49,308 bases of DNA from a bacterium (GTDB lineage: Bacteria; UBA8248). Under the pieces are notes generated by a model, which saw only the letters and a program-made list of their open reading frames with translations, searched no databases and was not told where the DNA came from. The number at the start of each line of letters is the position of its first letter. Within the stretch, counting starts at the first letter, position 1. A program made the translations under genes and the position numbers. Where the stretch lies: the NCBI GenBank assembly GCA_027622355.1, contig JAQBZT010000001.1:1-49308 (forward strand), written 5' to 3'. Below, piece by piece: positions 3,789-43,792 of this stretch.

Positions 3789-4520
3789 TCAAGCAAGCTT
3801 CGGCGGCGGGGGCTCGCCCGCACCGTTTTTGAGACAATCCCAAACGCCTTCACCGTCCAGCTCGGAAAAGAGATGATCGGGCGCCGCGCCGGAAAGCCTC
3901 TCCAGGGAATCGCCGCCGGTGGCGACCGCAATCGTCCGTGCGCCGGCGGCCTTTCCGGCCTCGACATCCCGCCAGGTATCGCCGACCACCCAGCGGACGA
4001 TCTCCGCCTTCGGGTCCCGCTCCCGGATACGCTCCTCTCCCCGGCAAAACCCTGCTTCGATCAAATCGGCCCGCAAAGAAGCATCCGAGGCAAAACCCCC
4101 AAAGGGGAAATAACGGTTCAGGCCTCCCCTTTCGAGCTTGATCCGGGCGCCCTCCTCGATGTTTCCGGTCCCCAGGCCGAGCAAAACCCCGGCCCGGCCG
4201 GAGAGAAAGTCCAACGCGTCCGGGATGCCGGGCATGAGGCGAAACCCCTTCGATTGGGCCACCTCCTGCGGCAGGTACTCCAGGTAGCGGCGCAGAATCT
4301 CCGCCACCTCCGCCGCCGAACCCTCCCGGTCCAGGTGGGCCTGGAACATTTCCTGGCAGATGGCAGGGTCAGTTTTTCCGTGCGGGCCGATTCCGGCCAT
4401 GGCGTTCGGAACGCCGTAGAGCGCGGCGAAAGCCGCGTCCAGGGCGCGGGCGCCCGACCCGCCGCTGAGCAGCAGGGTGCCGTCAATGTCGAAGAGAATC
4501 AGATGGTGTTGTGACGGCAT
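3789..4520 (-). CDS. HAD family hydrolase (phosphoglycolate-phosphatase-like)
   Basis: Trimmed to ATG at 4518-4520 (MPSQHHLILFDIDGTLLLSGG...). HAD motif I DxDGT and motif IV VGDTWRD. Confidence 0.8.
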   Translation of the reverse strand: MPSQHHLILFDIDGTLLLSGGSGARALDAAFAALYGVPNAMAGIGPHGKTDPAICQEMFQAHLDREGSAAEVAEILRRYLEYLPQEVAQSKGFRLMPGIPDALDFLSGRAGVLLGLGTGNIEEGARIKLERGGLNRYFPFGGFASDASLRADLIEAGFCRGEERIRERDPKAEIVRWVVGDTWRDVEAGKAAGARTIAVATGGDSLERLSGAAPDHLFSELDGEGVWDCLKNGAGEPPPPKLA

Positions 4521-12775: not shown

Positions 12776-13663
12776 ATGGCACTAAGATCACATTCCCAAC
12801 ATTCTACGATTGCTGTAGTTTTTGATTTTGACGATACTTTAATGCCCGATTCAACCACGCGTCTCCTTCAAGAACATGGCATAGATATTGAAAAATTTTG
12901 GAAGAAAGATGTAAAAAATTTGGTTTCATCTGGTTTTGATCCGCCTTTGGCTTACCTCAACCTTCTTTTAGAGAATATTGGATCAGGAAAGCCGTTAGGA
13001 AATCTAACCAGCAAAGATTTAAAGAAATTCGGCGCCAAATTAGACCGTCACTTTTATCCGGGCATCCCGGAAGTCTTTGTCGATCTGAAGAAAATGGTCC
13101 GACAATTCAAAAACATTAGTATCGAATTCTACGTAATTTCTGGTGGCCTACAGGATATCATCGAAGGTTCCAGAATTATTAAAAAACATTTCTCAGGTGT
13201 TTACGCTTGCAGGCTAGCTGGGGAAAAAAATGGAGGGGCGATTAAAAGTATAATGCGTTGTGGTACTTTTACTGAAAAAACCCGGTTTCTTTTTGAAATC
13301 AATAAAGGACTAGACCCAGCAACAACTCAAAAAAATCCTCATCTTGTTAACTCTTTAATCCCCGAAAATGAAAGACCAATTCCTTTTCAGAACATGATTT
13401 ACATTGGAGATGGCTACACAGATATTCCATGTTTTTCTTTGATCCAGAAAAATGGAGGAACGGCTTTTGGGGTATTTAATCCAGAGGAAGAAGGTTCTGC
13501 CAAGAGAGCATTTTTGGATTTCCTGAAAACCAAAAGAGTAATTAGTATGCATGCCCCAAAATATGGAAAAAAAGATGACCTTGGTGCGTTACTTCGTACT
13601 GCAGTAGCCACTATAGGCGCAGGCATAGCATTAAATCGCGAGAAAGCATCTAAAGAATATTAA
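12776..13663 (+). CDS. HAD-superfamily hydrolase-like protein (island cargo)
   Basis: 295 aa. Motif I VVFDFDDTLMPD (DxDxT), a cap region, and motif IV IYIGDGYTDIPCF. AT-rich codon usage differs from the rest of the window. Confidence 0.75.
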   Translation: MALRSHSQHSTIAVVFDFDDTLMPDSTTRLLQEHGIDIEKFWKKDVKNLVSSGFDPPLAYLNLLLENIGSGKPLGNLTSKDLKKFGAKLDRHFYPGIPEVFVDLKKMVRQFKNISIEFYVISGGLQDIIEGSRIIKKHFSGVYACRLAGEKNGGAIKSIMRCGTFTEKTRFLFEINKGLDPATTQKNPHLVNSLIPENERPIPFQNMIYIGDGYTDIPCFSLIQKNGGTAFGVFNPEEEGSAKRAFLDFLKTKRVISMHAPKYGKKDDLGALLRTAVATIGAGIALNREKASKEY

Positions 13664-34559: not shown

Positions 34560-36082
34560 TCTCTAGTCCCTCAATAAATTCGGGTCCGCCGGCCTACGAA
34601 AGATACTGATCGAGGTTTTCCGCCTGCAAAATATCCATCACTTCTTTGGCCATCCACGCTCGATTTCTTTGCTTTCCCGTAATTTCTTGAAGAAAGCCTT
34701 CGTCTTCGAGCCGCTGGATTGCTCGAATGGCGGTGGGAAGGGTTACTTTAAGCCGATCCGCTACGCCTGGTGACCGGCAAACCGGAAAACCAATCAGGCT
34801 GTCCACAAGAGCCATGCTCGTTGGCCCGCCCTTGGTCTGCATTTTTTGTCTGTATTCTTCTTGTTTATCTAACAACATTCTGATCCGCCAAGAGGAGTCC
34901 TTCGCCTGCATTTCCACTCCCCGGAGAAAAAAGATGAACCAGGGAATCCAATTGCCTTTTTGGCTAACGCCCAAAAGCAGATCGTAGTAATTACTGCGAT
35001 TTCGCTCAAAATAAGAGCTGAGGTACAGTAACGGCTGGGAAAGAAGCCCCCATTCACACAAAAGAATCGGAATTAACAAGCGGCCCACACGGCCATTTCC
35101 GTCCACAAAGGGATGGATTGCCTCAAACTGGTAGTGAATCATGGCCAGCTGTATTAGTGGCTGAATTTTGGATTTCGTGTGGAGAAATTTCTCCCAGTCT
35201 GAAATACATTCTTGCATTTCAGGAGTCGGTGGTGGCACATAAGTGGCATCATGAACAGAACTTCCGCCTATCCTGTTTTGCACTCGCCGAAACTCACCCG
35301 GGGCCCTATCTTGCCCTCTCACTTCTCGCAATAAAATAGAGTGGAGATCCCTCACAAACCTGAGTCCTATGGGCAACTCCAATCTGCGATCAAGTCCAAC
35401 CTCAAGCGCAATTACATAATTCAAAACCTCCCTGCGAACATCTGCGCCCTGTGGATGGTGCGTGGGATCGGCTTCATGGATGAACAACTCATCCAGATCG
35501 GTTTCTGTTCCCTCAATTCGACTGGACGCTTCGGCTTCTTTTCGCAAAAAAGGCCGAATCAATAAATGGGGGTTCGGTAGCGTTCTCCCGACCCCGGAGA
35601 GATCGCCCAGCGCTCCACGGGCTTCGGCCAAAGCGGCCATAAGTTCATCTGTAATTTTAATTTCAGGCGGAAGGGGGTCGGGCACAAACGCCGGGGCGCC
35701 CTCAGGAGTTCGAACAAGACGTCCTGGGGCATTCACCCCAAATTCTTCCTCTCTCATATCCGTATCCAAACCGTAGTGTCTGAACACTACTTGAGGCATC
35801 CACTTTTCACGCCACACCCGCATCCCTTGGGTACTCGAATACCCAAATTTCTTCCTCTCTCACAATGCGACCTTATCTAGTCAATAAAAACAACCATGTA
35901 AATGCTTTTGCCCTGCTTGTTGTCGAGAGTTAAACCATTATCACCTTTAACTAAAATTTTCAATAAAAATTTAACCAAGAAATTCCCTTGCTTAATTGTC
36001 CAATATTAACGATGGAAATATACTATATAGAGTGTTTTTACTGGTGCAGATAGCCTACATTTTGTATATTTCATTATTTTTA
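34560..36082. other. lower-GC island inserted between mnmE and mnmG (carries only the Fic gene)
   Basis: Composition drops visibly relative to mnmG and mnmE. 35824..36082 is strongly AT-rich. No flanking direct repeat or mobility gene was found by eye. Confidence 0.45.
34594..35823 (-). CDS. Fic family protein (class II, N-terminal inhibitory helix; C-terminal winged-helix)
   Basis: Fic motif HPFVDGNGRVGRLL. Inhibitory motif S-x-x-x-E-G in EASSRIEGTE upstream of it. C-terminal wHTH-like region. Start ambiguous: ATG at 35823, 35799 or 35757. Confidence 0.85.
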   Translation of the reverse strand: MRVWREKWMPQVVFRHYGLDTDMREEEFGVNAPGRLVRTPEGAPAFVPDPLPPEIKITDELMAALAEARGALGDLSGVGRTLPNPHLLIRPFLRKEAEASSRIEGTETDLDELFIHEADPTHHPQGADVRREVLNYVIALEVGLDRRLELPIGLRFVRDLHSILLREVRGQDRAPGEFRRVQNRIGGSSVHDATYVPPPTPEMQECISDWEKFLHTKSKIQPLIQLAMIHYQFEAIHPFVDGNGRVGRLLIPILLCEWGLLSQPLLYLSSYFERNRSNYYDLLLGVSQKGNWIPWFIFFLRGVEMQAKDSSWRIRMLLDKQEEYRQKMQTKGGPTSMALVDSLIGFPVCRSPGVADRLKVTLPTAIRAIQRLEDEGFLQEITGKQRNRAWMAKEVMDILQAENLDQYLS

Positions 36083-37504
36083 TTATTTTCCGATGCAGAA
36101 CGCCGAGAAAATTTTATCGAGGAGCGCCTCGCCCCAGCTCCGGCCGAGAAGCTCGGAGAGCGCGCCCTGCGCCTCGTTGAGGTGCACCGCGACCAGCTCC
36201 GGTGAAAGATCGGCGGCGATGGCGTCTGCGGCCCCCTCCACCCCCTCCCGGCATTTCGCCACCAGATTGCGGTGGCGCTCCCGGGTAAGGATGGCCTGAC
36301 CGCCCGGCCCCGCTTCTCCATCGGCCCCTGAAAGTTCGCGCGCGATGAGCGCACGCAGATCGTCCAGCCCCGCACCGTTCAGCGCCGAGATGGCGAGCGG
36401 GGGAGCACCGTTCGCATCCCGCTCCGGAACCTGCGCGCCGGGAAGATCGATCTTGTTCGCGATCAGCAGGGAGGGCGGCTCAATTTTTTCCTGCTCTTCC
36501 TTTCCCCACTGCGCCTCGGCCGCGCCACCCGCCGCATCGATCAGGACGAGGCAGAGATCAGCGCCCGCCGCGGCGCGCCTTGCGCGCTCGGCCCCTTCTT
36601 TTTCGATCAGGTCCTCGGTCTCCCGGAGGCCGGCGGTATCGATCAGGCGCACCGGAATGCCGCCGATGTCGCAGACCTCCTCGACGGTGTCCCGCGTCGT
36701 GCCGGGCAGGGGGCTCATGATGGCCCGATCGGTTCCGAGCAGGCGGTTCAGGAGGGTGGATTTTCCGGCGTTGGGCTTTCCCAGAATCGCCACCCGGGCC
36801 CCCTCGCGCAGGACGCGGCCCGATCGGTAGCTCGCCTCCAGTCCGCGGAGCCGCGCCGCCGCCGCCATGAAGCGCTCCCGCAGGGCAGGGGCACCCATTG
36901 GGCCTCCTTCGGGCGCGGGGCCCGCGCCGGGCTCGAATTCATCGGGAAAATCGATGGCCGCCTCAAGATGCGCCCCCGCTTCGACGATCTCCTCCCAGAT
37001 TTCATCCAGAGCGGACGAGAGGCCGCCTTCCAGCTGGGCGAGGGCCGCCCGGGCGGCACGCGAGGTTTCGGCGGAGACCAGATCGGCGACCGATTCGGAC
37101 TGGAGGAGATCGATCCTTCCGGAGAGAAAAGCCCTCCGGGTGAACTCCCCCGGGGCGGCGGGCCTGGCCCCTGCGCCGCGCGCCGCGCCGATCAGGGCCT
37201 GGACGACGGCGGGGCCCCCGTGGCAGTGCATCTCGGCCATGTCCTCGCCGGTGAAGGAGTTCGGCCCGGCCATGAAGACCGCCACGCCCTCATCGAAAGC
37301 ACCGCTCTCTGCATCCACGAACCGGCCGAGGACATAGCGCCGCTCGGGGAAGCGCGCTTTCGCCTTTCGGGGCTTGAAGATGCGCCGAAGAACGCGCTCC
37401 GCCTCCGGGCCGCTCAGGCGCACGATGGCGATGGCTCCCTTTCCCCATGCGGTGGAAAGAGCCACAATGGTGTCCCGTTCGGGCGCGTTGTTTTTATCCG
37501 TCAT
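36083..37504 (-). CDS. mnmE: tRNA modification GTPase MnmE (TrmE)
   Basis: 473 aa. G-domain GKPNAGKSTLLN, DTAG, NKID and the C-terminal FCIGK motif. Confidence 0.95.
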   Translation of the reverse strand: MTDKNNAPERDTIVALSTAWGKGAIAIVRLSGPEAERVLRRIFKPRKAKARFPERRYVLGRFVDAESGAFDEGVAVFMAGPNSFTGEDMAEMHCHGGPAVVQALIGAARGAGARPAAPGEFTRRAFLSGRIDLLQSESVADLVSAETSRAARAALAQLEGGLSSALDEIWEEIVEAGAHLEAAIDFPDEFEPGAGPAPEGGPMGAPALRERFMAAAARLRGLEASYRSGRVLREGARVAILGKPNAGKSTLLNRLLGTDRAIMSPLPGTTRDTVEEVCDIGGIPVRLIDTAGLRETEDLIEKEGAERARRAAAGADLCLVLIDAAGGAAEAQWGKEEQEKIEPPSLLIANKIDLPGAQVPERDANGAPPLAISALNGAGLDDLRALIARELSGADGEAGPGGQAILTRERHRNLVAKCREGVEGAADAIAADLSPELVAVHLNEAQGALSELLGRSWGEALLDKIFSAFCIGK

Positions 37505-37572
37505 GGCATTGGTCCCGCCTGCCCGCCGGTTTTCGGCCCACGAATGGGCGGCCCTTTTCCTGAGGTGCGCCG

Positions 37573-38565
37573 ATGTCCGAGCTGCGATGGAATCCCTGGC
37601 TGGAGCGGTGGGCGCTCATCGCCACCGCCCGCCGCGATCGCCCAAAGCAGCACACCTTTTCTCCCTCGACGCCCGCATTTCCCGAGCCCGGGTGCCCGTT
37701 CTGTCCGGGAAACGAGGCGAAAACCCCTCCCGAGATCGACGCCATCCGCCAGGGCGGCCGCTGGAGCGTCCGCGCCTTCGACAACAAGTTTCCGGCGCTC
37801 GCGCCCGGCCTGCCCGCCGCTCCAGTTGAGGACGGCCCGTTCTCGTCCATGCCGGCGCGGGGCCGGCACGAGGTGATCGTGGATGCGCCGGATCACTGCA
37901 AAGGGCTCGGCGATTACCCGGCGGGCCACGCCGCGGACGTTCTCGCCCTGCTCCAGAAAAGGGTGCGTGCCCTCTACGGAGAGCCGGGCATCCGCGCCAT
38001 CGTTCCCTACAAAAACCACGGCGCCGCCGGGGGGGCGTCGCTTCCGCACTCCCATCTTCAGGTGGCGGCGCTGCCCGCGATCCCGCCGCGCACCGCCAGG
38101 GAGCGGCACGCCGCCGAAAAACATCTGCGCGAAACTGGCCGGCCGCTTCTCGGGGAGACGCTCTTCCGCGAGCGGGAAGACGGCCGCCGCCTCGTGGAGC
38201 AAGCCGAAGGGGCCATCGCCTACTGTCCCTTCGTTTCTCTTTATCCCTACGAAATTGTCATCGCGCCCCAGCCGATCGGAGAGCGTTTCGCCGACGCCTC
38301 CCGCGAGACGCTCGAAGCCGTGGGCGGGGCGCTGGCCCGGTCGCTGCTCCGCATCAAGATCCTGCTGGGCGATCCGCCCCTGAACGTCCTTTTCCACATC
38401 GAAACGGGTCCCGGAGAAGAGAAGACGCCCGGCGCGCATCACTGGCACATCGAAATCATCCCCCGGCTCACCGTCCTGGCCGGCCTTGAGCTCGGGGCGG
38501 GCGTTCACATCAACGAGGCCGCTCCCGAGGAGGCCGCGGCGGCGCTTCGCGGGGCGCTCTCCTAG
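37573..38565 (+). CDS. galactose-1-phosphate uridylyltransferase (GalT/HIT superfamily)-like protein
   Basis: 330 aa. CPFCPGNE zinc motif and HSHLQ (HxHxQ) active site. Divergent from mnmE. Confidence 0.75.
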   Translation: MSELRWNPWLERWALIATARRDRPKQHTFSPSTPAFPEPGCPFCPGNEAKTPPEIDAIRQGGRWSVRAFDNKFPALAPGLPAAPVEDGPFSSMPARGRHEVIVDAPDHCKGLGDYPAGHAADVLALLQKRVRALYGEPGIRAIVPYKNHGAAGGASLPHSHLQVAALPAIPPRTARERHAAEKHLRETGRPLLGETLFREREDGRRLVEQAEGAIAYCPFVSLYPYEIVIAPQPIGERFADASRETLEAVGGALARSLLRIKILLGDPPLNVLFHIETGPGEEKTPGAHHWHIEIIPRLTVLAGLELGAGVHINEAAPEEAAAALRGALS

Positions 38566-39323
38566 CCGGTCCAGAGGCCCCCGTTGATGTCGAGCGTGAC
38601 GCCGGTGATGTAGCTTGCGCCCGGCGACGCCAGATACCAGACGCCGTCGGCGATCTCGTGCTCGGTCCCCGGCCTTCCCATGGGGATTCCCTTTTTGACG
38701 TCCTCGATCCGGTTCTTGTGCAGCTCGGCGACGCGGGGAGAGAGCACCACGCCGGGCGCCACCGCGTTCACAGTGATGCCGTGCGGGGCGAACTCCACGG
38801 CGAGGCGGCGCGTAAAACCGACGATGGCTGTCTTCGCGGTGGTGTACTCGACGGCGGTGAAGCGGACGCCGGTTCTCCCGGCGGTGGAGGAGATGCTGAC
38901 GATCCGGCCGTAGCCCGCTTTTTTCATGACGGGTACCGCCTCGCGGCAGCACAGGTAGACGCTCTTCAGGTTCCAGGCGATCGAGGCGTCCCAGACGTCT
39001 TCTTCCAGATCCTCGAAGTCGCGGATCTCGAGGAATCCGCCCGCGCAGTTCACGAGAATATCGAGGCGGCCCCATTTCCCGAGCGCTCCCCCGAAGGCGC
39101 TGTGCACCTCGTCGGCGGAGGCGGCTTCCGCCCGAAAGAAAGCCCCTTCACTCCCGGCCGCGGCCGCTTTCTCCGCCGCCGCGGCGCCCCTCACTTCGTC
39201 GCGGTCCAGCACGGCGACGCGCGCTCCCTCTCGGGCGAGACGCTCCACGCAGGCGAGGCCGATCCCGGCGCCGCCGCCGGTGACGACCGCCACTTGCCCT
39301 TCCAGGGATTTGCCTTGGCTCAT
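38562..39323 (-). CDS. SDR family oxidoreductase (FabG-like)
   Basis: 253 aa. VTGGGAGIG and NCAG motifs and an SDR-type Y-x-x-x-K (YTTAK). Confidence 0.8.
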   Translation of the reverse strand: MSQGKSLEGQVAVVTGGGAGIGLACVERLAREGARVAVLDRDEVRGAAAAEKAAAAGSEGAFFRAEAASADEVHSAFGGALGKWGRLDILVNCAGGFLEIRDFEDLEEDVWDASIAWNLKSVYLCCREAVPVMKKAGYGRIVSISSTAGRTGVRFTAVEYTTAKTAIVGFTRRLAVEFAPHGITVNAVAPGVVLSPRVAELHKNRIEDVKKGIPMGRPGTEHEIADGVWYLASPGASYITGVTLDINGGLWTG

Positions 39324-39910
39324 CGTCTTCCTCTCCCTGATCCCAAAAGCGGGGCGCGCGCGGTGACGCGGTAGGTGTCCGCGTCGTTATTCTGGGAGAG
39401 CGCCCCCGTGAACCCCGCCGCCCGGACTTCGCTCTTCAGATCGTTTGGCGCAATCCGCGTCCAGAGCGGGGGACCGTGGTCCGTCTCGTGAACGTGCCAT
39501 TCCATCAGAACGATTCTCCCGCCCGGCTTGAGCGCGCGGCGGGCCTCCGACAAAAGCCCCTGTATCGATCGCGTCTCGTGCGTAACGAACGCCAGCAGCG
39601 CGATATCGGCCACGCTGTCTGGAAATGGGATATGGGGATCGCGGTTGCGGCGAAGTTCGATGTTTTCGTGTCCCGCCTCGCGGGCTTTCTGGCGGGTCTC
39701 GCGGAGCATGATCGGCGAGATGTCGCACGCCAGAACCGCGCCCCGGCGGCCCACGATCCGGCAGGCGGGAAGCGTGAAAAATCCCGGCCCGCAGCCGACA
39801 TCGAGCAGGATCATGCCCTTGGCAAGGCCCAATTCCCGCAACGTTTTCGCCGGAGGCATCGCCTTGCGCCGCTGCGGGCTCAAGAGGCGGCTTCGCCGCC
39901 GGGGAGGCAT
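39320..39910 (-). CDS. class I SAM-dependent methyltransferase
   Basis: ILLDVGCGPGFF motif I and LKPGGRIVL post-I region. Start placed at ATG 39908-39910; the track uses TTG at 39943. Confidence 0.75.
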   Translation of the reverse strand: MPPRRRSRLLSPQRRKAMPPAKTLRELGLAKGMILLDVGCGPGFFTLPACRIVGRRGAVLACDISPIMLRETRQKAREAGHENIELRRNRDPHIPFPDSVADIALLAFVTHETRSIQGLLSEARRALKPGGRIVLMEWHVHETDHGPPLWTRIAPNDLKSEVRAAGFTGALSQNNDADTYRVTARAPLLGSGRGRR

Positions 39911-39939
39911 GACCCAGGGCTTGCGCGCCCCGGAAGCCC

Positions 39940-41043
39940 TCAAGCCTTCTCCTCCAAAAAGCCCTCCAGCGCCTCCCGCAGCCGATCGGGAGGAACCCCC
40001 TCACGAATCAGCAGCAGGCCCTCGAGGATGAGCTCGAGCTTTCTCCGCTCCTTCTCGGTGCGCGTGCGGTGGCGCCGCTCGAGCATGCGCTCGATTTCAT
40101 CGATGCCCGCGCCCTCGAGCGCCCAGCGCAGCCCGCGGCGCAGGAGCGCCTCGGGAATATCCCCCAGCCGCCCCTCCAGCGCGGCGAGCCCTTCTCTGTG
40201 GGCCTCCTCCGCCAGATCGCAGCAAAGGGAGATGATCCGGCTGGTCGCCTGAGCGGACGGGGGCAGGTGCATCTCGGGAAGGCGCTCGTAGTCCGCCGCC
40301 CCTTCGGGCAAAAAGGCGACGAGCCTGGCACGGGCCCGCTCCCTGCCCTCCTCGGAGACGATGGAGGCCAACCCCTCGATGAGGATTTCGCCGTTTCTCT
40401 CCAGGTGCACGATATAGGCGTCAATTTGACGCCCCACGATGGACTCGATGTCTTCCACCAAGGAGAGGTCGATGACCATTCGAAGGCCGGTCGAGAGAAC
40501 GCTGCCCGGCATCCGATCCAGGGCCGGCTCGAGCGAAAGGAGCCCGTGCCGGAGCGCCCGGGCGGAAAAAAGTGCCAGCAGATCGATGGCCTCCGCCGCC
40601 TCCATCTCCGCCAGATGGTGGGCCGAAAGCTTTCCTTCCGTCTCGATTTCGAGCGGAGGGATCGTATCGTCCGCCGGGCCATCGAGAGAGATCTCCCCCC
40701 GCTCTTCCAGGGAATAGGCGGTGGCCATGAGGGTGCGCTGGGCGTCTCGATACACTTCCCGCGGCATCCCCGCGTTCCTCTGTATTTCCGCGCGCAGGAA
40801 TTCGGCGGCGTGGACAGAAACGTTTTGCAGGACGCGATCCGCCACTGCGGGATCGGCGGTACAGAGTGCGAGAGAGAGTGTTTCCGGATCCGACCGATCA
40901 ATGATCCGGCGGAGCGCACGGCCGGACATGTTGGAAAGCGGGGAGAGATCTGCTTCCTCGGCGCTGAACAGCCCATCTTCTTCCGGGTCGTCCGGGCCCG
41001 TCCCGCCCTCGTCTTCCCAGTCGCGAAATCTTTCCGTGCCCAT
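39940..41043 (-). CDS. soluble FliG C-terminal-domain-like protein with two MotA-cytoplasmic-loop-like repeats
   Basis: Trimmed to ATG at 41041-41043 after GGAGGA (367 aa; the track ORF extension overlaps yidC). LSNMSGRALRRIIDRSDPETLSLALCTADPAVADRVLQNVSVHAAEFLRAEI resembles FliG_C. Two later segments (RHGLLSLE...GLRMVIDLS..; REGLAALE...GLRWALEGAGIDEIERMLE) resemble the GLLALE...DPFL..GL.LVVDG region of MotA. No TM segment. Confidence 0.55.
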   Translation of the reverse strand: MGTERFRDWEDEGGTGPDDPEEDGLFSAEEADLSPLSNMSGRALRRIIDRSDPETLSLALCTADPAVADRVLQNVSVHAAEFLRAEIQRNAGMPREVYRDAQRTLMATAYSLEERGEISLDGPADDTIPPLEIETEGKLSAHHLAEMEAAEAIDLLALFSARALRHGLLSLEPALDRMPGSVLSTGLRMVIDLSLVEDIESIVGRQIDAYIVHLERNGEILIEGLASIVSEEGRERARARLVAFLPEGAADYERLPEMHLPPSAQATSRIISLCCDLAEEAHREGLAALEGRLGDIPEALLRRGLRWALEGAGIDEIERMLERRHRTRTEKERRKLELILEGLLLIREGVPPDRLREALEGFLEEKA

Positions 41044-41060
41044 TTCGCTTTCCTCCCCTG

Positions 41061-42692
41061 CTAGTTTTCCTCGGCCAGCTTGGGTGCCTTGACAGAACGA
41101 TTGACGAAATACTGTTGGACGATCGAAAGGACGTTGTTCACGAGCCAGTAAATCACCAGCCCGACCGGAACCGGATAGTAGATGAACATTCCGGTAAAAA
41201 TGACGGGCATCATTAACATCATTTTCGCCTGCGAGGGATCGCCCGCCGTCGGCGTCATCTTTTGCTGAAGAAACATGGAGGCGCCCATCAGGATGGTGTA
41301 GACGTGAAACGGATCGGGCTTGGACATGTCGGTCACCCACCAGAAGAAGGGTGCGTTCCGCAGCTCGATCGAGACCAGCAGGGCATTGTAGAGGCCGAAG
41401 AAAACCGGGATCTGAATGACCATGGGCAGGCACCCCATCATGGGGTTGACCTTGTGCTCCCGGTAAAGGGACATCACCTGCTCGTTCATCTTGGTCTTGT
41501 CGTCCTTATAGATCTCCTTCAGCTGGGCCATCTTGGGCTGAAGTCTCTGCATCTCTTTCATGTTCCGCATGCTCACGTGGGTGAGCGGATAGAAGATAAT
41601 TTTGATGAGGATGGTCAGGAGGATGATTGCGAACCCCCAGTTGCCGACGATTGCGTGGAAAAACCGCAGGGCAACCATCAGCGGGCGGGCGATAATCGAG
41701 AACATGCCGTAATCGAGGGCGTTTTCCATCCCCACCCCGAGCTTCGCGAGGCGGGCCGGCTCCTTGGGTCCCACGAAAAGATCGAACACCGCTTCCGTGC
41801 GGGCGTCCGTCTTGAGGGGGACGGCGACAACGTAGTCGTTGATCTCTTTGGCGTCCCCCAAGAGACTTACTTCCGCGCCGCCTGCGCCCGCGCGCGGAAC
41901 GAGCGCTGCGATAAAGTACTTCGCCTGGAGGGAAACCCACTCGGTGCCCTCGCCGTGGACGACGGGTTTTCCTTTTTCTGGGGCATCGTAGTGGAGCTTA
42001 TTTTTTACGTAGCTCATCGGGCCTTCCACCACTCCGCCGTAGGTGTTCCCGTCCGCTCCACCGAGCCGGGGGCCCCAGGCCAGGCCGAGCGACTGGGGGG
42101 TCTTGGGCTGCGCGATCCGCACCTTCATGCCGACGGCATAGCTGTTGTGGCGAAAGGTGAATATTTTTTCCGCCATCAGGCCGTCCGGGCCGGAATAAAC
42201 GAAGTGGAGGGTCGCCTCGGGCTTCGACGCGGAGAGGGAAATGGTGCGCGTGTCCGTGCGATAGAGGCCCTGGTTCAGGCGTGTGGCGATCTCGCTTCCC
42301 GTGAAGAAAAGCGGCCTCAGCTCCGCGCTCCCCGCGAGAACCAGCTCGAGTTCCTTGCCGTTCTCGCTCCGGTAGTCCGTGAGGGTTGCCGAAAGAAGGC
42401 CTGCCCCCTGATTCGTGAAGACGAGGGCCGCCTTGCCGGTTTGTACCGTGACCCGGATTTCCTCGGAGGGAGCGGGGGCGGTAGTCGCCGGCGCGGATTC
42501 TTTTTGCGGGGACGGGGGCTTTGCCGTCAGGGGGGCCGAGGTGGCCGGCCGGGAAGGCGCGGCTTTTTTCTGAGACTCAGCCGCCCGCTTCTGATCGCTC
42601 CGTTTTTCTTCCATCGGCCGCAACACCAAAAATTGCCACCCGATAAGAATCGCCAGCGAAAGTGCGGCGGCGATAATTGCGTTCTTTTCCAT
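41061..42692 (-). CDS. yidC: membrane protein insertase YidC
   Basis: 543 aa. N-terminal TM, periplasmic domain, and a conserved C-terminal 5-TM core (QPKMAQLKEIYKDDKTKMNEQVMSLYREHKVNP, GCLPMVIQIPVFFGLY). Confidence 0.95.
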   Translation of the reverse strand: MEKNAIIAAALSLAILIGWQFLVLRPMEEKRSDQKRAAESQKKAAPSRPATSAPLTAKPPSPQKESAPATTAPAPSEEIRVTVQTGKAALVFTNQGAGLLSATLTDYRSENGKELELVLAGSAELRPLFFTGSEIATRLNQGLYRTDTRTISLSASKPEATLHFVYSGPDGLMAEKIFTFRHNSYAVGMKVRIAQPKTPQSLGLAWGPRLGGADGNTYGGVVEGPMSYVKNKLHYDAPEKGKPVVHGEGTEWVSLQAKYFIAALVPRAGAGGAEVSLLGDAKEINDYVVAVPLKTDARTEAVFDLFVGPKEPARLAKLGVGMENALDYGMFSIIARPLMVALRFFHAIVGNWGFAIILLTILIKIIFYPLTHVSMRNMKEMQRLQPKMAQLKEIYKDDKTKMNEQVMSLYREHKVNPMMGCLPMVIQIPVFFGLYNALLVSIELRNAPFFWWVTDMSKPDPFHVYTILMGASMFLQQKMTPTAGDPSQAKMMLMMPVIFTGMFIYYPVPVGLVIYWLVNNVLSIVQQYFVNRSVKAPKLAEEN

Positions 42693-42718
42693 GCAAACAA
42701 TTCTCCGTCATCCACTCG

Positions 42719-42961
42719 CTAGGGAACCGGGTCGTTTCCCCCGGGATGAAAAGGGTGACAGCGTGCAAGACGCCGGACCGAAAGCCAGAGCGCCATGTGG
42801 GGAGGATGCCGGCGAAAGGCTTCGGCCGCATAAGAAGAACAGCTCGGCGAAAACCTGCAACTCCCTGGCAAAAGAGGGGAGACGATCAGTTGATAGCCCC
42901 GGATGAAAACAAGGGCGAGGGCACGGATAAGCGCCAAGGTTCCGCGGCCTGCGGTTTCCAT
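42719..42961 (-). CDS. yidD: membrane protein insertion efficiency factor YidD
   Basis: 80 aa. YQLIVSPLLPGSCRFSPSCSSYA and CHPFHPGGNDPVP motifs. Confidence 0.85.
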   Translation of the reverse strand: METAGRGTLALIRALALVFIRGYQLIVSPLLPGSCRFSPSCSSYAAEAFRRHPPHMALWLSVRRLARCHPFHPGGNDPVP

Positions 42962-43344
42962 TATTTCATCAGTCCGATCGCGCCCCGGAAGTCTCTCTCC
43001 ACATCCTTCAGCTTCGCCTTCGTGATGGCGCGCTTGGCAACAAACACAAAATCCGTTCCGTCGGGAAGCATGGGGTAAGACTGCCGGAATGTCTCGCGGA
43101 GCAGCCGCTTCGCCCGGTTTCGCTCGACGGCGTTGCCCGTTTTCCGGGAGGCGACCACGCCAAGCCGGGCGGAGCCTTCATTGCCCGACATTACATGAAC
43201 CGTGAAAAAGCGGCTGTGGAATTTTCTGCCGTTTTGGAGAACACGCAAAAACTCTGGCCGGTGCCGTATCTTCATCTCTGAACGAAACCCTTGTCCCATC
43301 TCCCCATCCTCGGAGGAAAGGGGTGCGGAGGCGCTTCCGATCAT
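42961..43344 (-). CDS. rnpA: ribonuclease P protein component
   Basis: RNase P protein motif GNAVERNRAKRLLRE. Directly follows rpmH (TAGATG). An internal start at the MGQG position is possible. Confidence 0.8.
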   Translation of the reverse strand: MIGSASAPLSSEDGEMGQGFRSEMKIRHRPEFLRVLQNGRKFHSRFFTVHVMSGNEGSARLGVVASRKTGNAVERNRAKRLLRETFRQSYPMLPDGTDFVFVAKRAITKAKLKDVERDFRGAIGLMK

Positions 43345-43479
43345 CTAAACGGAAAGACGCTTCCTTCCCTTGGCGCGCCTGCGCTTGAGGACGGACTGGC
43401 CGCCGATGGTTTTCATCCGGCGGCGAAAGCCGTGGGTTTTGGTTCTTTTTGTCCGGTTGGGCTGATAAGTTCGCTTCAC
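43345..43479 (-). CDS. rpmH: 50S ribosomal protein L34
   Basis: GTG at 43477-43479 gives (M)[43 protein letters not shown], 44 aa. Confidence 0.9.
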
Positions 43480-43671
43480 GTGCTCGCCTCTGTTTCCGCA
43501 AGCCGGGGGAGAGGGATTCTGCCTGTCCGGAATCGGCTTGCGCAACCCGGATTCCCCTAAAAAACCGTGGCTACATTAGCTATCCGCCTTCGCGGTGTCA
43601 AGGCGGGGAATACGGGCATCGAAAACCCGATTTTCGGCGCGTCTCCCTCTCCCGGGATAGCCCTTTTTTTT

Positions 43672-43792
43672 CGTGGAAAAAAACTTTTTTTATCTCAAAT
43701 TCGTTGATTTCGCTGCCCTGATTGCCATTTTCCCGGGCTTTCCTCATTTTTTTGTGGAAAACGCTTGCTTTTCCACCCCGGGCTGTGGAATT
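43672..43792. promoter_or_regulatory. DnaA-box cluster upstream of dnaA
   Basis: CGTGGAAAA (43672-43680), TGTGGAAAA (43753-43761, 8/9 to TGTGGATAA), TTTTCCACC (43769-43777), TGTGGAATT (43784-43792). Flanked by T-rich tracts. Confidence 0.5.

Follow-up and report, generated by a model that had tools for sequence, protein, structure and literature searches.

In the flagellar motor, the contact between the C-terminal domain of FliG (FliG_C) and the cytoplasmic domain of MotA turns ion flow into rotation, and so far this contact is known only within membrane-embedded motors. Johnson et al. (PMC11302681) solved the MotA5B2 complex with FliG_C by means of an engineered MotA-FliG_C fusion (PDB 8UCS), and describe a 'pincer grip' in which a pair of neighbouring MotA cytoplasmic domains holds one FliG_C. 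A second study (PMC12505986) gives the contact pairs as R90 with D288-D289 and E98 with R281, and calls the MotA cytoplasmic domain the 'torque-generating interface'. That interface is treated there as an innovation of flagellar stators, and the main text contains neither the word 'soluble' nor the word 'fusion' (0 occurrences each). The present study concerns a gene at 39940..41043 on the minus strand of a 49,308-nucleotide window (positions 1 to 49,308 of contig JAQBZT010000001.1, assembly GCA_027622355.1, UBA8248). Its product (P0002) is a soluble protein made of one FliG_C domain followed by two tandem, mutually homologous MotA cytoplasmic domains. FliG_C is abbreviated here as G and the MotA cytoplasmic domain as M, and the gene is referred to as the G-M-M gene. 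It is a real conserved gene and belongs to a large undescribed family that reuses both torque-contact faces in soluble form.

The open reading frame (ORF; 41043..39940) consists of 367 codons and a TGA stop in the translation of the window. Its ATG follows the yidC stop codon (41063-41061) after an 18-nt gap that contains a Shine-Dalgarno sequence, GGGGAGGAAAG, at 41048..41058 on the minus strand, as read directly from the sequence, and the initiator methionine is invariant in 19/19 aligned homologues. The protein is acidic (isoelectric point 4.7; 74 Asp and Glu against 44 Lys and Arg), and no hydrophobic segment was found in its 367 residues, the highest Kyte-Doolittle mean over 19-residue windows being 1.19. 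An initial annotation of this DNA had described a 367-residue acidic protein located 18 nt after yidC and without transmembrane (TM) helices, with a resemblance to the FliG C-terminal domain at about residues 35-125 and two repeats resembling the cytoplasmic part of MotA. The ORF, isoelectric point, gap and hydropathy bear out the first part of this description, and the domain assignments are borne out by the profile, structure and repeat comparisons that follow.

FliG_C (PF01706) is the sole Pfam family above threshold in the protein, matching residues 36-120 with an E-value of 3.6e-14 and 53.4 bits against a cut-off of 23.3, and a sequence search of PDB chains matched FliG 8umx_B at E 1.7e-6. 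When the AlphaFold2 model was compared with FliG_C crystal structures using VIA, it superposed at 1.2-1.5 A over 89-94 residues (Z 14-15.7), with 3usy_A the closest (Z 15.7; root-mean-square deviation, rmsd, 1.3 A over 91 residues). Together with the conserved charged positions, these matches assign the FliG_C (torque-helix) domain to residues 31-125 (40669..40953, minus strand). The position equivalent to FliG R281 is Lys or Arg in 18/19 sequences of a Nitrospinota alignment (A1) and in 12/13 of a broad alignment (A2), the equivalent of D289 is Glu in 16/19 and 13/13, respectively, and the N-x-S that starts the torque helix is invariant. A motif that is invariant in the 19-sequence alignment (G116, I118, P123-A124-D125-D126 and P129-P130) closes the domain. 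No match to FliG_N or FliG_M (PF14842, PF14841) was found in the protein at E <= 1, and the full-length FliG equivalog TIGR00207 reached only 38.3 bits against a cut-off of 226.7, over profile positions 246-336 alone. In front of the domain lies an acidic tail, residues 1-30 (40954..41043, minus strand), with 12 Asp and Glu and 2 Lys and Arg; it is predicted to be disordered, with a predicted local distance difference test score (pLDDT) below 50 for residues 1-28.

The remainder of the protein is a tandem repeat. Residues 140-250 and 255-367 aligned to each other in hhalign with a probability of 98.2 and an E-value of 5.6e-14 over 106 columns of the family alignment. The repeats were delimited as Mcyt1, residues 146-250 (40294..40608, minus strand), on the basis of PDB MotA matches and a hidden Markov model (HMM) of the repeat, and Mcyt2, residues 263-367 (39943..40257, minus strand), on the basis of NCBIfam PRK08124, PDB 8ucs_C and hhalign. 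Six NCBIfam equivalogs for MotA, MotP and PomA match the protein (E 2.4e-16 to 2.5e-4), each in two or three stretches, and all of them fall far under their full-length cut-offs, the MotA equivalog reaching 59.5 bits against 340. The stretches show which part of MotA is present: residues 265-332 correspond to MotA 73-140 in PRK08124, and in the match to MotA 8ucs_C (E 1.2e-5) residues 157-209 correspond to MotA 85-137 and residues 333-363 to MotA 218-248. When the repeat HMM was run over all ORFs of the genome, it matched only the G-M-M gene and the genome's true MotA (E 1.7e-21), with no match to the genome's three TolQ/ExbB paralogues. HMM positions 10-76 fell on residues 73-139 of the genome's MotA, the loop between TM2 and TM3, and positions 74-107 on residues 213-246, the tail after TM4. 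From this two-piece match, each repeat equals a complete MotA cytoplasmic domain minus the TM3-TM4 hairpin: the TM2-TM3 loop is fused directly to the post-TM4 tail, and both TM1-TM2 and the TM3-TM4 hairpin are absent. The MotA_ExbB channel family (PF01618) and PF20560 gave no match in the protein at E <= 1. The G-L-L-x-L-E motif is retained in Mcyt1, where G167 and E172 are invariant in 19/19 sequences. Between the repeats, a linker at residues 251-262 (40258..40293, minus strand), in which pLDDT dips to 62-78, extends a nearly invariant RLVAFLPEG..D motif that starts at residue 240, the end of repeat 1; the invariant columns of this region are R240, L241, V242, F244, L245, P246, G248, D251, P256 and P262 (19 sequences). 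The idea that the whole protein is a three-fold repeat of one ancestral unit was rejected, as FliG_C aligned to the M repeats with hhalign probabilities of only 3.9 and 0.6.

The AlphaFold2 model is all-helical with a mean pLDDT of 84.5 and a predicted template modelling score (pTM) of 0.79; only residues 1-28 are disordered. These values indicate that the predicted domains have a fixed arrangement. In a Foldseek search of the PDB, MotA and FliG chains ranked first, with MotA chains the best, at E-values of only about 1e-2; no match reached E <= 0.001, and the domain matches emerged in the VIA comparison. There, residues 145-367 of the model matched MotA and PomA chains with Z 12-16 (8ucs_C: Z 15.5, rmsd 3.5 A over 141 residues), while ExbB and TolQ scored only about 5.5. 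The initial annotation had noted that its FliG and MotA assignments would fail if the likeness were generic to ARM or other helical repeats such as MgtE_N. The assignments stand: a Pfam scan of the protein gave no match to MgtE_N (PF03448) at E <= 1, and the structural scores separate MotA from ExbB and TolQ.

The protein is therefore related to two well-described motor components and equal to neither, sharing with them the interface domains alone. In residues 31-125 it has the C-terminal fold of FliG (PF01706; PDB 3usy, 1lkv, 1qc7, 8umd) at 23-30% identity, with the charges equivalent to R281 and D288/D289 mostly kept. However, FliG has a FliF-binding FliG_N and a FliM-binding FliG_M, both missing here; its FliG_C is C-terminal, whereas that of the G-M-M protein is N-terminal; and the G-M-M gene is found in genomes without FliF, FliM and FlhA. 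Each repeat likewise equals the cytoplasmic domain of MotA or PomA (PDB 8ucs, 6ykm, 8brd), but those proteins have four TM helices, the PF01618 channel and a MotB partner, none of which belongs to the G-M-M protein, where the domain is instead present as a tandem pair on the same chain as its rotor partner. A comparable arrangement is the engineered fusion behind 8UCS (PMC11302681), in which a single polypeptide likewise contains both MotA cytoplasmic domains and FliG_C. That construct is laboratory-made and contains the full membrane MotA5B2, whereas the G-M-M protein occurs naturally, is soluble and carries precisely two M domains. Jag (KhpB; Jag_N, KH and R3H domains) shares with the protein only a position downstream of yidC and no domain. 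A search of the full-text literature, which excludes subscription-only papers and bioRxiv supplements, found no description of soluble FliG_C-MotA proteins or of fusions between extracytoplasmic function (ECF) sigma factors and FliG_C, and PF01706 was used in PMC8789113 merely to fetch FliG. The earlier statement that the protein fits no described system thus agrees with the failed tests for FliG, MotA, MgtE_N and Jag and with the literature.

The G-M-M protein has many relatives. A word-indexed search for close homologues returned 29 proteins including the query, of which 19 were aligned; complete ones have 355-371 residues, and the 19 share 59 invariant columns at 48-76% identity to the window protein. 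The few with names are labelled Nitrospinae/Nitrospinota or 'bacterium', and P0005 alone bears a functional label, 'FliG C-terminal domain-containing protein'. When 1.84 billion representatives were searched with a profile of the 19 proteins, 3025 matched at E <= 1e-3, of which 220 reached E <= 1e-10. Among the best 148 relatives, a hydrophobic segment is lacking in 136, and just 2 contain at least three. The domain architecture of 146 of these 148 was classified with HMMs made for this study. GMM, the architecture of the window protein, is the commonest (43/146), followed by MG (34/146), GM (23/146) and MMG (10/146, two of them real TM MotA proteins with a C-terminal FliG_C); MMMG and GGMM were found in 4/146 each, MMMMMGG in 3/146, MMMMMG and MMMMM in 1/146 each, and the remainder have rarer domain orders. 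The G-M family is defined as TM-free chains that combine one or more FliG_C with one or more membrane-free M domains, a definition that includes the window protein. The G-M-M protein thus belongs to a large unnamed soluble family in which G and M occur in many ratios. Pfam detected FliG_C in 47 of 49 proteins chosen from the best 148 and nothing in the other 2. A broader profile also reached true FliG (E about 1e-30) and true MotA (E about 1e-24), both ranked below family members, which confirms the dual homology.

Several relatives are fused to other domains. ECF sigma domains are joined to G and M in P0039, P0071, P0195 and P0196, an AraC-type helix-turn-helix domain to M and G in P0055 and P0074, and tetratricopeptide repeats (TPR) in P0108 (Pfam). 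The ECF sigma and AraC-type DNA-binding fusions suggest a regulatory role. Named family members come from Latescibacterota and Treponema, and look-alike clusters in the ESM Atlas are commonest in Thermodesulfobacteriota, Myxococcota and Bacillota. The five-M proteins of the Treponema type (P0033, P0034, P0040, P0047, P0146) carry up to two FliG_C per chain; five is also the number of subunits in the MotA pentamer, and five M with one or two G make up 4/146. P0033 (five M and two G, 948 residues) was modelled at pTM 0.73 from only 13 sequences, which suggests a defined, compact and possibly ring-like multi-domain body that would be hard to square with beads on a string. A metagenome scan for family neighbourhoods gave 62 loci with 51 matching genes, of which about 40 are FliG-sized with one C-terminal FliG_C and most likely ordinary FliG. 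The scan also gave 4 soluble G-M genes (L043, L044, L046, L047) and 3 TM MotA-FliG_C fusions (L070 5713-7104, L079 1498-2958, L090 2673-3965). The latter and proteins P0134 and P0165, all of them MotA with a C-terminal FliG_C, are natural TM counterparts of the 8UCS construct; TM segments were scanned in P0134 and P0165 only, and the L070, L079 and L090 genes match PF01618. No MotB-like gene adjoins the fusion at L070, L079 or L090, which lie among genes of carbohydrate and other metabolism. A phage-like viral contig (L113, 86 kb, GC 0.40) has an M-like ORF at 3983-4377 that comes without FliG_C and is split over two frames.

The distribution of the gene in Nitrospinota is informative about its relation to flagella. 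It was found in 28/51 genomes of the phylum. Genus g3 has 23 genomes, several of them closed, and 21/23 carry the gene. True FliG was found in 0/23 of these genomes, their sole FliG_C matches being the G-M-M gene itself at E about 1e-13, compared with about 1e-43 for real FliG. MotA was also found in 0/23, both by Pfam MotA_N and by a search with the MotA protein of the window's genome, and FlhA in 0/23. The median ratio of nonsynonymous to synonymous substitution rates (dN/dS) was 0.16 over 55 pairs of 11 g3 orthologues, which were assigned to g3 by coordinates. The gene is thus under purifying selection in a genus without FliG, a MotA-type stator or FlhA. Of the 51 Nitrospinota genomes, 7 have both the gene and MotA, 21 only the gene, 7 only MotA and 16 neither. 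Retention in g3 and the lack of association with MotA argue that the function of the gene is independent of the flagellum and of MotA-type stators, and independence from flagella within Nitrospinota is well supported. Because flagellum-less relatives keep the gene, the protein probably does its job outside the flagellum. Either a frameshift or an assembly error has divided the orthologue of one g3 genome (L036 8040-9057, which is G024:C4:1268187-1269276) into a pair of adjacent ORFs that cover profile positions 1-200 and 201-364.

The window's own genome (G000; 95.5% complete, 347 contigs) does hold flagellar-type genes, as a check proposed by the initial annotation found: two flagellins, a FlgE hook gene, a sigma-54 activator of the FlbD/NtrC kind and a PomA-like MotA/MotB pair lie on other contigs (C113, C24, C321 and C17; loci L003, L004, L009 and L002), and the genome's only MotB adjoins the true MotA on contig C17. 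No match to FliG, FliM, FliF or FlhA was found in the genome at this completeness. The missing core genes reflect either an unbinned cluster or decay. The orphan MotAB pair on C17 was considered as a partner for the G-M-M protein, but this idea was rejected as a general one, since MotA is missing from 21 genomes that carry the gene. In two relatives the orthologue of the PomA-type MotA is broken or has in-frame stops (G040:C1:3588985-3589754 and G046:C111:19527-20269), which would fit a continuing loss of motility genes in this family.

Since one FliG_C to two M domains is also the composition of the solved minimal contact, we infer that the protein most likely rebuilds the rotor-stator contact within itself. 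In this model, the two M domains would clamp the torque helix of their own FliG_C, which would be docked between them by analogy with 8UCS; alternatively, the contact could be rebuilt between copies of the protein. A closed clamp could then open and offer either face to a partner, making the protein a flagellum-independent binding or switch module. No torque would be generated, as there is neither an ion channel nor a MotB partner. Taken as a whole, the proposal that the protein is a flagellum-independent, self-clamping regulator has about an even chance of being correct.

Several observations weigh against this model. The contact residues are not uniformly kept: position 164, taken as the R90 equivalent, is Glu in 10/19 and Arg in 3/19 Nitrospinota sequences, and E290 of repeat 2 is kept in only 9/19, so the contact in cis may have been remodelled or lost. 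These correspondences (E172 with E. coli E98, position 164 with R90) were made by motif and spacing on an alignment to C. sporogenes MotA rather than to E. coli MotA. DSSP assigns one continuous 34-residue helix (196-229) in the model where MotA has an antiparallel pair and where the five-M Treponema model has a helix-turn-helix, so that the individual repeats may not simply copy the MotA fold and might be swapped. The gene is missing from 16/44 genomes of its own order and is thus dispensable there. Relatives P0044 and P0173 carry FliG_N/FliG_M, and long TPR proteins (P0303-P0308) carry FliM or FliN, according to precomputed Pfam labels from the same search; the module may therefore be motor-associated in flagellated lineages. 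Lastly, the neighbours of the G-M genes in the metagenome loci are unrelated, heterogeneous metabolic genes and give no functional signal. A complex prediction between the M-M half (residues 128-367) and the FliG_C half (30-124), with alignment A1 for both, scored 0.00 against a mark of 0.32 and is evidence neither way.

The possible motor association of these relatives raises the question of whether the protein could be a flagellar motor accessory, acting as a clutch, brake or decoy in which M binds the FliG_C of the rotor or its FliG_C plugs the stator surface, thereby modulating torque in hosts with flagella, the window's organism among them. The window's genome has a PomA-type MotA/MotB, two flagellins and FlgE, the charges of the torque helix are conserved, and the fusions to full FliG and the TPR proteins with FliM or FliN favour such a role. 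There is also a precedent in FapA of Borrelia, a cytoplasmic protein which, as described in bioRxiv 10.64898/2026.10.14.759253, covers the rotor-facing surface of MotA and masks the MotA-FliG interface, and which is thus a functional analogue for a clutch. However, the ferredoxin-like, beta-sandwich and beta-solenoid domains that make up FapA are unrelated folds, and neither FliG_C nor a MotA-type domain is among them. The purifying selection in the 21/23 g3 genomes without FliG, MotA and FlhA, the uncorrelated presence of gene and MotA (7/21/7/16 in 51 genomes) and the absence of adjoining flagellar genes from all 27 Nitrospinota loci described below make this role unlikely. The position of the gene would suit another role, as a cytoplasmic partner of some other membrane machine, either membrane-protein insertion by YidC, given presumed co-transcription with yidC, or a 5:2 motor of the TolQR/ExbBD type that would engage FliG_C. 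The fixed place after yidC, with the 18-nt gap and strong Shine-Dalgarno sequence, and the three TolQ/ExbB paralogues of the genome favour it, and the acidic disordered tail could be a docking peptide. This explanation is very unlikely, since the M domains are specific to MotA (no TolQ/ExbB match with the HMM, structural Z about 5.5 against 15), relatives outside the phylum adjoin neither yidC nor a motor, and in the g6 genomes yidC directly precedes the methyltransferase gene with the G-M-M gene missing.

A third type of explanation is structural rather than switch-like: M domains of several chains would assemble into MotA-like rings of five, decorated by FliG_C, as a soluble oligomeric scaffold. 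Single chains with the composition MMMMMGG, MMMMMG or MMMMM do exist (5/146), one of them with a compact model (pTM 0.73), and the single-M GM proteins (23/146) would need pairing to form a pincer. However, a ring of five cannot be made up evenly from chains that each bring two M domains, and the monomer model of the G-M-M protein is already compact, which leaves the scaffold quite unlikely. The idea that the gene is a decaying flagellar relic without a present function, or a mis-called ORF, could draw on the split gene in one g3 genome (L036; G024) and the absence from 16/44 genomes of the order. It is already contradicted by the median dN/dS of 0.16, the 59 invariant columns at 48-76% identity, the conservation of start codon, Shine-Dalgarno sequence and synteny, and the confident predicted fold, and is hardly credible.

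Whatever its partner, such a protein would matter beyond this locus. A natural soluble form of the contact on a single chain would be tractable for biochemistry and crystallography, and bears on the origin of the flagellum-specific 'torque-generating interface' of MotA. FliG_C and MotA domains are not confined to motility, since bacteria without flagella conserve them and some transcription factors carry them as fusions. A practical result is a warning for annotation: some pipelines name G-M proteins 'MotA', and this label or 'FliG C-terminal domain-containing protein' does not imply a flagellum. A broader idea, which we consider unlikely in its full extent, is that the family represents a membrane-less torque contact in which M domains form pincers or five-membered rings that hold FliG_C and act as a general conformational switch apart from motility, attached to sigma factors and DNA-binding domains; such a switch would either have predated and seeded the flagellar MotA interface and FliG_C, or have been co-opted from the flagellum into a new regulatory system that now outlives its loss, as it would in this lineage of Nitrospinota.

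The G-M-M gene lies in a housekeeping neighbourhood. Immediately upstream is yidC (41061..42692, minus strand; Pfam 60KD_IMP and YidC_periplas). Downstream follow a class I S-adenosylmethionine methyltransferase of the UbiE/COQ5-like type (39320..39943, minus strand; Pfam, with all NCBIfam matches under their cut-offs), whose listed TTG start overlaps the G-M-M stop codon, and a short-chain dehydrogenase/reductase (SDR) or FabG-like oxidoreductase (38562..39323, minus strand; Pfam adh_short_C2, 2.1e-57), which overlaps the methyltransferase by 4 nt. Past the SDR come a convergent GalT-like gene, mnmE, a Fic gene and mnmG, and on the other side dnaA, recF and gyrB. NCBIfam gave the methyltransferase, SDR and GalT-like genes only generic names, all below cut-off. 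The close packing of the gene with yidC, the methyltransferase and the SDR suggests that it is expressed together with envelope and housekeeping genes; in a promoter and terminator scan of 37400-43800, sites were no more numerous than in shuffled sequence. The initial annotation had given the same order, with mnmE beyond the GalT-like gene, and had seen no flagellar genes nearby. Pfam annotation agrees on both points, with no flagellar family among the 38 window ORFs scanned. Across 27 related Nitrospinota loci the arrangement is recF-dnaA on the opposite strand, yidC, the G-M-M gene, methyltransferase and SDR; yidC is upstream in 26/27, the methyltransferase directly after in 24/27 and the SDR downstream in 27/27, and flagellar genes adjoin the homologue in 0 of 27. 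The question of whether homologues always follow yidC therefore has a divided answer, with yes for nearly all loci of this phylum and no for relatives outside Nitrospinota, which adjoin neither yidC nor any motor.

The initial annotation had also described the gene as occupying the slot normally held by jag. The position is indeed the one after yidC where a class-level relative (G004) has jag, in the order yidC, jag (Jag_N-KH-R3H), mnmE, mnmG. However, the idea of a replacement did not hold. R3H is present in 7/7 genomes of the sister family to which G004 belongs and in 0/44 genomes of the window's order, and 16 of these 44 R3H-less genomes also have no G-M-M gene. In the same order, yidC is followed directly by the methyltransferase gene in the g6 genomes, where the G-M-M gene is missing, and by a DsbA-like gene in g8. 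As jag and R3H are absent throughout the order even where the G-M-M gene is missing, the latter is no one-for-one replacement of jag. Rather, jag is lost in the whole order, and the G-M-M gene is an independent occupant of the site in part of one family only. The proposed search for a jag homologue elsewhere was negative, with no Jag_N or R3H found anywhere in the window's genome, and Pfam found no Jag_N, KH or R3H domain in the 367-residue protein.

Two further features of the window differ from their surroundings in composition. The Fic gene between mnmE and mnmG (34594-35823, minus strand) encodes a Fic/DOC adenylyltransferase with Fic_N, Fic and helix-turn-helix domains, and its third-position GC of 0.50, compared with 0.75-0.85 in its neighbours, suggests a later insertion into the mnmE-mnmG pair. 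An ORF at 12776-13660 on the plus strand has a third-position GC of only 0.31 in an otherwise GC-rich window and is an AT-rich insertion.

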